Virus record (IMG/VR): IMGVR_UViG_2582580933_000012
Coordinates: 1 to 6,371 of that record
Direction: 5' to 3' (one strand)
DNA from: a virus
Lineage: Duplodnaviria; Heunggongvirae; Uroviricota; Caudoviricetes
Length of the DNA: 6,371 nucleotides
Below the pieces are notes generated by a model that was not told the origin of the DNA, made no database searches, and saw only the letters and a list, made by a program, of their open reading frames with translations. The translations under genes were made by a program, and so were the position numbers. Shown piece by piece: positions 2,245 through 2,321 of this stretch (its first letter is position 1; every line of letters begins with the position of its first letter).

Positions 2245-2321
2245 TGGACCGCCACCGGGGACTCGAACCTCGCACACTCAACTTAAAGGGTTGACGCTCT
2301 TTCCTGATGAGCTAGTGGCGG
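2245..2321 (-). tRNA. tRNA-like gene with anticodon UUU (Lys-type) but atypical anticodon loop CCUUUAA (C at position 33) and U73; identity uncertain
   Basis: Reverse complement is CCGCCACTAGCTCATCAGGAAAGAGCGTCAACCCTTTAAGTTGAGTGTGCGAGGTTCGAGTCCCCGGTGGCGGTCCA: perfect 7-bp acceptor stem starting C1:G72, perfect D-stem GCTC/GAGC, perfect anticodon stem TCAAC/GTTGA, GGTTCGAGTCC T-arm with one A-C mismatch, CCA encoded. Confidence 0.6.

Follow-up and report, generated by a model that had tools for sequence, protein, structure and literature searches.

The closest described relatives of the gene considered here belong to the ileZ-argN-argO cluster (GenBank gene names) of Shiga toxin (Stx)-converting and other lambdoid phages (933W, VT2-Sakai and their relatives), a set of tRNA genes situated between the antitermination gene Q and the lysis or toxin genes. 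Here we describe a tRNA gene with a UUU anticodon (hereafter the UUU tRNA) at positions 2245-2321, minus strand, of a 6,371-nucleotide (nt) stretch of IMG/VR virus record IMGVR_UViG_2582580933_000012 (positions 1 to 6,371, referred to throughout as the window). It occupies the same slot as argN, directly after a tRNA with a CAU anticodon, and shares with the ileZ-argN-argO tRNAs the C1-G72 pair, U73, a 9-nt D-loop with A20, and the T-arm. It differs from argN in its anticodon, which is UUU rather than UCG or UCU, and in having C33 in place of U33, and where the Stx phages have argO, the cluster in the window continues with two host-gene copies, Thr(UGU) and Gly(UCC). The original prediction, made from the letters of the window, offered three options for this gene, namely a tRNA-Lys variant that evades nucleases, a decaying pseudogene, or a tRNA whose identity is different; what is presented below favours the last two together, with the first less supported. 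Our literature search found nothing specific for ileZ, argN or argO, or for a prophage tRNA-Lys.

A C33 is found in the eukaryotic cytoplasmic initiator tRNA-Met, which binds the P site directly. Both the initiator and the UUU tRNA have a 7-nt anticodon loop that starts with C32-C33 and ends with A37-A38, although the UUU tRNA differs in its UUU anticodon and its elongator-type acceptor end with a fully paired C1-G72. A further comparison is with phage T5's tRNA-Lys(UUU), which is likewise phage-borne, has a UUU anticodon and differs from the host tRNA at positions 39, 41 and 16 (PMC12409363; PMC11464382). The T5 molecule is a lysine tRNA that experimentally rescues infection, and the changes described in the available portions of these papers lie only at 39, 41 and 16, whereas the UUU tRNA is Arg-derived, carries C33, C31-G39, U73 and signs of decay, and is known here from sequence alone. 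Finally, the UUU tRNA resembles cases of alloacceptor anticodon shift, or tRNA remolding, and was detected here by synteny; the cases described in the accessible parts of that literature are eukaryotic nuclear or mitochondrial and usually give a functional tRNA (PMC3923123; PMC4783518), whereas the present one lies in a bacterial prophage, has additional defects and is of doubtful function.

An arginine-type tRNA body with a UUU anticodon

ARAGORN delimits the UUU tRNA as 77 nt on the minus strand, reading CCGCCAC-UA-GCUC-AUCAGGAAA-GAGC-G-UCAAC-CCUUUAA-GUUGA-GUGUG-CGAGG-UUCGAGU-CCCCG-GUGGCGG-U-CCA, with a cloverleaf of 7/4/5/5 bp stems. The match to the Rfam tRNA model RF00005 is full length (1-71), at 44.4 bits (E=3.5e-07, gathering score 29). 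The parts of the molecule are as follows.

2296-2312, minus strand: D-arm, with D-loop AUCAGGAAA, C16 at 2306, G18 G19, and A20 at 2302
2278-2294, minus strand: anticodon arm, with pairs U27-A43, C28-G42, A29-U41, A30-U40 and C31-G39 (C31 at 2290, G39 at 2282)
2283-2289, minus strand: anticodon loop C32 C33 U34 U35 U36 A37 A38, with C33 at 2288 and the anticodon at 2285-2287
2258-2270, minus strand: T-arm, with canonical T-loop UUCGAGU and, in the Rfam alignment, the sole stem mismatch between A51 (2270) and C63 (2258)
2245-2248, minus strand: discriminator U73 (2248) and encoded CCA (2245-2247)

The near-universal U33 is therefore absent, a C standing at 2288. A51/C63 is the only non-Watson-Crick stem pair, a position occupied in relatives by A-U, G-C or G-U (alignment columns 52/64), and the tertiary nucleotides U8, A14, G18 G19 and T-loop U54 U55 C56 A58 are all kept in the window copy. 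C33 is not a sequencing error, because the CCTTTAA loop recurs in 116 of 122 independent viral contigs with the same anticodon stem. Thus the C33, the UUU anticodon, U73, the single T-stem mismatch and the canonical T-loop noted in the original prediction are all borne out, and the loop remains CCUUUAA in the Rfam alignment rather than becoming a standard CUUUUAA on re-annotation, ARAGORN likewise calling the anticodon UUU; what needed correction in that description was the strand, the gene lying on the minus strand.

A search with the 77 nt found relatives in 2145 of 5426 complete E. coli genomes and in 273 phage records. Those below about 90% identity are annotated nearly all as tRNA-Arg, including argN of Stx-converting phages, and in every locus that we fetched (designated by L numbers where needed) the relative sits at the same site, directly after the CAU tRNA and downstream of Q. 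This site is slot 2 of the post-Q tRNA cluster of lambdoid phages, which in Stx phages consists of ileZ-argN-argO. The scaffold of the family is conserved (C1-G72, acceptor stem CCGCCAY/RTGGCGG, U73, a 9-nt D-loop with A20, and the T-arm), U73 being present in nearly all members including those with Arg anticodons, and it is the anticodon arm that varies: the loops found are CUUCGAA (UCG), CUUCUAA (UCU), CUUUUAU (UUU with U33, in L006 and L016), CCUUUAA (the lineage of the window), the 8-nt CUUUUUAU (L008) and a rearranged form annotated 'tRNA-OTHER' (L012). In an alignment of 16 distinct family sequences, paired cells make up 97.3%, five pairs have changed on both sides and none of 500 shuffles reaches the observed covariation score, while slid-register controls pair at only 29-53%; all four helices are supported by this covariation, and the family is a genuine structure-constrained tRNA.

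The most informative relative is locus L188, an identical Ile2-X-Thr-Gly cluster with the same spacers in which X is a fully paired Arg(UCU) tRNA with loop UUUCUAA. With the anticodon loop masked, the UUU tRNA is 94.3% identical to this Arg(UCU) tRNA and 58.9% identical to host tRNA-Lys, the latter figure being no better than that to an unrelated tRNA and so giving no homology to the host lysT family. Identity of the body to the argN/argO family is about 80-94% over 77 nt and 84-94% loop-masked. The host tRNA-Lys(UUU), which has U33 and A73, is matched at 100% identity in all 5426 genomes with a median of six copies.

Since U73 and C1-G72 are family-wide, they are not modifications of a lysine tRNA, so the contrast between U73 and the A73 of tRNA-Lys drawn in the original prediction does not mark an altered lysine tRNA. 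Nor does the proposal of a Lys-type tRNA hold as a statement of descent, given the synteny and loop-masked identity that place the body in the argN/argO family. Judged from its letters and setting, the UUU tRNA is an alloacceptor anticodon shift from UCU to UUU (C35U) within a real Arg tRNA family, mislabelled tRNA-Lys by its anticodon. On the same comparison U33C and U63C read as further derived changes, the latter creating the A51/C63 mismatch, and U32C is probably derived as well. Of the Arg identity set, A20 and U36 are present and C35 is absent (U35); with C35 lost, the UUU tRNA belongs to the family by descent but no longer as a working tRNA-Arg.

Predicted charging and fate

In E. coli, arginine identity is conferred by A20 (the main determinant for arginyl-tRNA synthetase, ArgRS), C35, U/G36 and A/G73, and lysine identity by the three anticodon bases and A73, any other base at 73 lowering acceptance (PMC9976931). 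A C31-G39 pair in E. coli tRNA-Lys reduces lysine acceptance 100-fold and, in the same context, gives faint glutamine acceptance (PMC1483225). U33 enforces the U-turn required for ribosome binding; the bacterial enzyme for threonylcarbamoyladenosine (t6A) makes no base-specific contact to U33, and 36-UAA-38 is its strict determinant (PMC13276492).

Among the features of a substrate for lysyl-tRNA synthetase (LysRS), the UUU tRNA has U34 U35 U36 and lacks A73 (U73 at 2248), and its 31-39 pair is C31-G39 (2290/2282) as against A31-U39 in host tRNA-Lys. With C35 lost and with C31-G39 and U73 in place, it therefore misses an ArgRS determinant and presents two negative features to LysRS. It is probably transcribed and processed, and on these comparisons it is probably also poorly charged and poorly decoding.

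A related suggestion is that the molecule miscodes, being charged with arginine through A20 or with glutamine and inserting either at Lys codons, or that a shifted triplet is read through the abnormal loop. A20 is the strongest E. coli ArgRS determinant, C31-G39 with U35 gave faint glutamine acceptance in the tRNA-Lys context, and relatives with an 8-nt loop exist (L008). We nevertheless consider miscoding extremely improbable: C35 is also required for arginylation, glutamine acceptance was reported as no more than faint, missense at Lys codons throughout the proteome would carry a high cost and yet the allele is common, and there is no evidence of recoding signals.

We lean instead, without great confidence, towards the UUU tRNA being a degenerating, anticodon-shifted relic. 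A slot-2 Arg(UCU) tRNA of the lambdoid post-Q cluster would have undergone C35U, shifting its anticodon from UCU to UUU, and would have acquired U33C, U63C and probably U32C as well. The retention of the cloverleaf and encoded CCA makes late-operon transcription and processing probable, while the molecule would be orphaned for charging and decoding, with C35 gone, C31-G39 combined with a non-A73, and U33 gone, so that it most likely makes little or no contribution to translation. It may owe its persistence to hitch-hiking alongside the lysis module and the conserved Ile2(CAU) tRNA, further damage (U8C and a D-stem deletion) apparently building up in large sub-lineages.

Variation, damage and spread in slot 2

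Diversity was assessed in 95 aligned lineage loci, a sample that is clonal and mosaic. Nucleotide diversity (pi) in this set was 0.0043 for the CAU tRNA, 0.0269 for the UUU tRNA, 0.011 for Thr, 0.0136 for Gly, 0.0165 for the 291-nt downstream intergenic region and 0.013 for the holin gene. The UUU tRNA is thus the most variable member of the cluster and no less variable than non-coding DNA, and no purifying selection on the lineage is detectable. The reference haplotype accounts for 49 loci, 22 carry U8C (with C4U and C11U) and 11 have a 1-nt deletion in the D-stem. These U8C and deletion forms have no PGAP annotation and go unreported by the Rfam tRNA model at E<0.01; in an evenly spaced sample of E. 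coli matches, 7 of 14 lineage rows lacked a tRNA annotation. The copy in the viable, temperate phage Evi has 96.1% identity to the window tRNA, the same figure as the U8C variant, in a comparison made by identity alone. We also considered the low covariance-model score of the UUU tRNA as a sign of decay and rejected it as a family trait, Arg relatives scoring 43-56 bits against 44.4 here.

Relaxation is not confined to the C33 lineage. The commonest argN(UCG) type of Stx2 phages (L011:401-477 and 31 other viral-contig copies) has mismatches A6/A67 and A52/C62, G58 for A58, and a score of 43.4 bits, a pattern pointing to relaxed constraint across the whole of slot 2. The classical argN could be weak or degenerate in its own right. 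Slot 2 is also dispensable, some clusters having no slot-2 gene or holding other variants.

Within the lineage, eight stem substitutions, mostly C-to-U changes leaving G-U, comprise five that keep pairing, one that restores it and two that break it, and no two-sided compensatory pair change occurs among the 95 loci. The mostly preserved pairing, and the survival of the cloverleaf, CCA and UUU loop while charging and decoding features were lost, would suit a role other than decoding: the RNA might act on a nuclease or modification enzyme directed at tRNA-Lys, as its decoy or competitive inhibitor, or might simply punctuate the processing of a polycistronic tRNA transcript. The common U8C and D-stem-deletion forms argue against selection on tRNA shape, as does the dispensability of the slot against such a role in general, and we think it very unlikely.

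A census of viral contigs in which the anticodon stem was fixed and the loop left free returned 122 matches, made up of CCTTTAA (116, the lineage of the window), TCTTTAA (2), ACTTTAA (1), CTTTTAT (1), TTTCTAA (1, L188) and one unrelated sequence. In species-representative genomes the stem-fixed pattern was found in E. coli and Shigella only, plus one doubtful metagenome-assembled genome. Among complete E. coli genomes 279 records match the UUU tRNA at 99% or more and 472 at 95-99% (about 750 in all), a prevalence that partly reflects clonal sampling, as with the deletion variant in PPompW prophage records of Stx2a-converting phage entries. We tried as evidence of selection the fact that C33 and UUU do not vary among the 119 lineage copies; this proved underpowered, with about 14 segregating sites over 77 nt giving some 0.7 expected changes in those four positions.

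Several observations weigh against the UUU tRNA being a decaying relic. The undamaged C33 form is the commonest single haplotype, found at 49 of 95 loci and reaching 279 E. coli records at 99% or more, and outnumbers the intact Arg(UCU) form in the same stem context by 116 to 1; hitch-hiking can explain this prevalence, and positive selection could too. Damaged copies make up 10 of 39 in the C33 lineage and 32 of 77 in the Arg lineages, which is not significantly different (Fisher p=0.11). That six of the eight stem substitutions keep or restore pairing fits weak structural selection, and equally a C-to-U mutation bias. The molecule retains 36-UAA-38 and an encoded CCA, and while its single-sequence minimum free energy (MFE) fold, which proved uninformative, is not a cloverleaf (z-score -1.46), the cloverleaf is as stable as that fold (-25.5 vs -25.0 kcal/mol). 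Lastly, the charging predictions are based on transcripts of other tRNAs.

Other slot-2 genes show departures of their own. L008:401-478 (E. coli M18, NZ_CP010219) has the 8-nt loop CUUUUUAU, for which ARAGORN gives an anticodon 'tttt' and PGAP tRNA-Lys; the geometry is that of +1 frameshift-suppressor tRNAs, and about 1 in 40 sampled family matches is of this type. The slot-2 gene annotated tRNA-OTHER in L012:401-482 and L075 has intact acceptor, D and T arms and an anticodon arm replaced or expanded by 5 nt (AGACGACACGATAACAGGGTTGTTG), and is not called by ARAGORN. In L009:401-477 (argN of an O157:H7 Stx2 prophage) and L004:401-476, C70U gives a G3-U70 acceptor pair. G3-U70 is the major identity determinant for alanyl-tRNA synthetase, which raises the question of alanine mischarging in these copies.

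tRNA-directed nucleases

PMC12409363 places the site at which AriB of the PARIS system cuts tRNA-Lys at U39-C40|A41, and reports that U39A abolishes cleavage, that A41C and U16C impair it, that T5 escapes AriB with variant tRNAs and that phage tRNA-Lys variants rescue infection from PARIS. Infection can likewise be rescued from PrrC170 by a phage tRNA-Lys (PMC11555353). PrrC cleavage falls 3' of nucleotide 33 (PMC2610378), U33C is without effect on cleavage by the yeast gamma-toxin (PMC2275089), and our literature search found nothing on C33 in PrrC recognition.

At the AriB-relevant positions the UUU tRNA has G39, U40, U41 and C16, against U39, A41 and U16 in host tRNA-Lys, and therefore should not be an AriB substrate. 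The determinants are lacking because of the Arg-type body and not because of C33; they are inherited features rather than adaptations. The Thr(UGU) tRNA of the window, in turn, keeps the host-identical AriB site UAAUCA.

These features invite the view that the UUU tRNA is a functional, nuclease-resistant Lys decoder, expressed from the late promoter, charged with lysine and reading AAA/AAG after host tRNA-Lys(UUU) has been cut by PARIS AriB, PrrC or RloC, while its own cleavage is prevented by the Arg body and perhaps by C33, which lies at the scissile junction of PrrC. The rescue from PARIS and from PrrC170 gives such a tRNA precedent (PMC12409363; PMC11555353), all three AriB-relevant positions (39, 41 and 16) differ from the host, and PrrC cuts 3' of nucleotide 33 (PMC2610378). 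Host tRNA-Lys is abundant (6 copies), which leaves codon supplementation unable to account for a phage Lys(UUU) gene; the t6A determinant UAA is kept, the C33 form is very prevalent, and the cluster also holds Thr(UGU), the second prime AriB target, as other lambdoid phages hold Asn(GUU) and Thr(UGU) in the slot (PMC3636060). We find this decoder doubtful all the same. The 100-fold loss associated with C31-G39, together with U73, predicts very poor lysylation, and C33 takes away the U-turn uridine; the gamma-toxin, the only anticodon nuclease for which we found U33C data, cleaves unchanged; the AriB-resistant features come from the Arg ancestor, and the Thr(UGU) of the cluster is host-identical and keeps its AriB site. 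Moreover, pi is highest in the cluster for this gene, a third to half of the copies carry U8C or the D-stem deletion, and the variant with a canonical U33 (CUUUUAU, in L006 and L016) is rare.

The composition of the post-Q slot in other phages is of interest in this regard. Asn(GUU) and Thr(UGU) fill this slot in lambdoid phages of the SfI type, and SfI, Sf6, ST64T, PS3 and P21 are reported with one or both of these downstream of Q (PMC3636060). With the UUU-anticodon gene added, the post-Q slot of temperate phages covers exactly the three main AriB targets (PMC3636060; PMC12409363), a match that is suggestive.

The nuclease-evasion proposal of the original prediction consequently keeps one part of its case, in that the UUU tRNA lacks the AriB determinants by sequence, and loses ground elsewhere, since this lack is due to the Arg body, C31-G39 and U73 predict a poor LysRS substrate, and U33C had no effect with the gamma-toxin. 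The support is circumstantial, includes nothing specific to C33, and requires function from a tRNA predicted to be very poorly charged. In its broadest form, the Arg-bodied C33 tRNA of a widespread prophage would read lysine codons or act as an uncleavable decoy, protecting late gene expression from tRNA-Lys-directed nucleases, with the Arg-derived stem and D-loop escaping AriB and C33 at the 33|34 junction blunting PrrC-type cleavage; we judge this unlikely.

Genomic context

The window comes from a lambdoid prophage of E. coli and spans its region of late regulation and lysis. E. coli O80:H26 EC-107 (NZ_CP043217) matches it over its full length at 99.1% identity, and at least 80% of it is present in 30 of the 5426 complete E. 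coli genomes. EC-107 has the exact UUU tRNA allele, as does phage PhiR47_1 of ECOR13. The gene order on the minus strand is a DUF968/ydfU gene, rusA, Q, the four-tRNA cluster, holin, ydfR, lysozyme and Rz, and the features around the cluster, including open reading frames (ORFs) on the plus strand with lengths in amino acids (aa), are as follows.

4192-4551, minus strand: Q (Pfam Phage_antitermQ)
2631-4178, plus strand: three-ORF insert between Q and the tRNAs, rare (30 of 5426 genomes hold the whole window)
2631-3542, plus strand: 303-aa ORF, PADLOC candidate PDC-S42 (E=3e-53), phrog_3243
Within 2631-4178, after the 303-aa ORF, plus strand: hydrophobic-looking proteins of 81 and 128 aa (phrog_27630 and phrog_26468, PHROG function unknown)
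2408-2436, minus strand: sigma-70-like hexamer pair TTGCAA-17-TATTAT, a weak (9/12 matches) possible cluster promoter, ending 9 nt before the first tRNA
2323-2398, minus strand: slot-1 tRNA, first in the cluster, CAU anticodon, ileZ-like (ARAGORN; Rfam 72.5 bits; tRNA-Ile in PGAP)
2245-2321, minus strand: slot-2 tRNA, UUU anticodon (ARAGORN tRNA-Lys(ttt); Rfam RF00005 44.4 bits; PGAP tRNA-Lys in NZ_CP043217)
2167-2242, minus strand: tRNA-Thr(UGU) (ARAGORN; Rfam 73.8 bits)
2089-2163, minus strand: tRNA-Gly(UCC) (ARAGORN; Rfam 64.9 bits)

The Thr(UGU) gene of the cluster is an exact copy of the single-copy host gene (100% identity, 5421 of 5426 genomes), and the Gly(UCC) gene is likewise an exact copy (100%) of its host counterpart. 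The two are 3 nt apart in the prophage, while the host Gly gene lies about 210 nt downstream of Thr; we take the host genes to be thrU and glyT, presumably with tyrU between them. The prophage pair looks like a captured, trimmed fragment of the host operon. In five loci (L103, L140, L154, L158 and L184) G35U and A26G have arisen in the Thr(UGU) copy itself. This tRNA combines a Thr body and A73 with a canonical CUUUUAA loop, and these prophages thus hold two UUU-anticodon genes. We considered this second shift to UUU as convergent selection and discarded the idea, the five loci sharing one Lys-like haplotype (C4U, U8C, C11U, C63U, U73G) that marks a single event.

A scan of the window for promoters and terminators gave counts at chance, the two hexamer-pair sites comparing with 1.2 expected (not significant). 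In a near-identical record PGAP annotates a 36-aa 'antiterminator' fragment at about 2457-2567 on the minus strand, with a terminator-like hairpin inside it (2523-2543); this looks like the remnant of a second Q gene and late-promoter region, left when the plus-strand cassette and a different Q joined. Rfam 'Plastid-ycf2 5'UTR' matches on the plus strand of the window (2091-2398) and in L004-L012 scored 29-36 bits against a gathering score of 65.7 and run exactly antisense to the tRNAs, and are artefacts because that model contains an antisense tRNA. In two non-Stx prophages the small RNA family STnc100 gives a strong match (132-136 bits) just downstream of ileZ-argN-argO (L010:643-851 and L011:643-833).

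A link had been suggested between the UUU tRNA and a neighbouring candidate defence cassette. The 303-aa ORF does match PDC-S42, although a Pfam search of the three plus-strand ORFs gave no match, and the association itself is not conserved: the immediate upstream context is common to only 6 of the 95 lineage loci, and the whole window occurs in 30 of 5426 genomes as against about 750 records with the UUU tRNA. We therefore reject the link and regard the adjacency as incidental to a hotspot of moron insertion.

Implications

The interest of the UUU tRNA is modest unless charging or protection emerges. If evasion were nonetheless its role, a counter-defence so far demonstrated in virulent T5-like phages would extend to temperate ones, in the form of anticodon-shifted tRNAs deployed against PARIS- or PrrC-type nucleases. 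It would give temperate phages their first example of anti-defence through an alloacceptor anticodon shift, and bacteria their first natural elongator tRNA that functions with C33. If it is instead a relic, the 'tRNA-Lys' listed in several hundred RefSeq E. coli genomes is Arg-derived and probably non-functional, and the argN slot of Stx and other lambdoid phages would be a hotspot of tRNA degeneration and anticodon drift, a degeneration that bears on codon-supplementation arguments for phage tRNAs.

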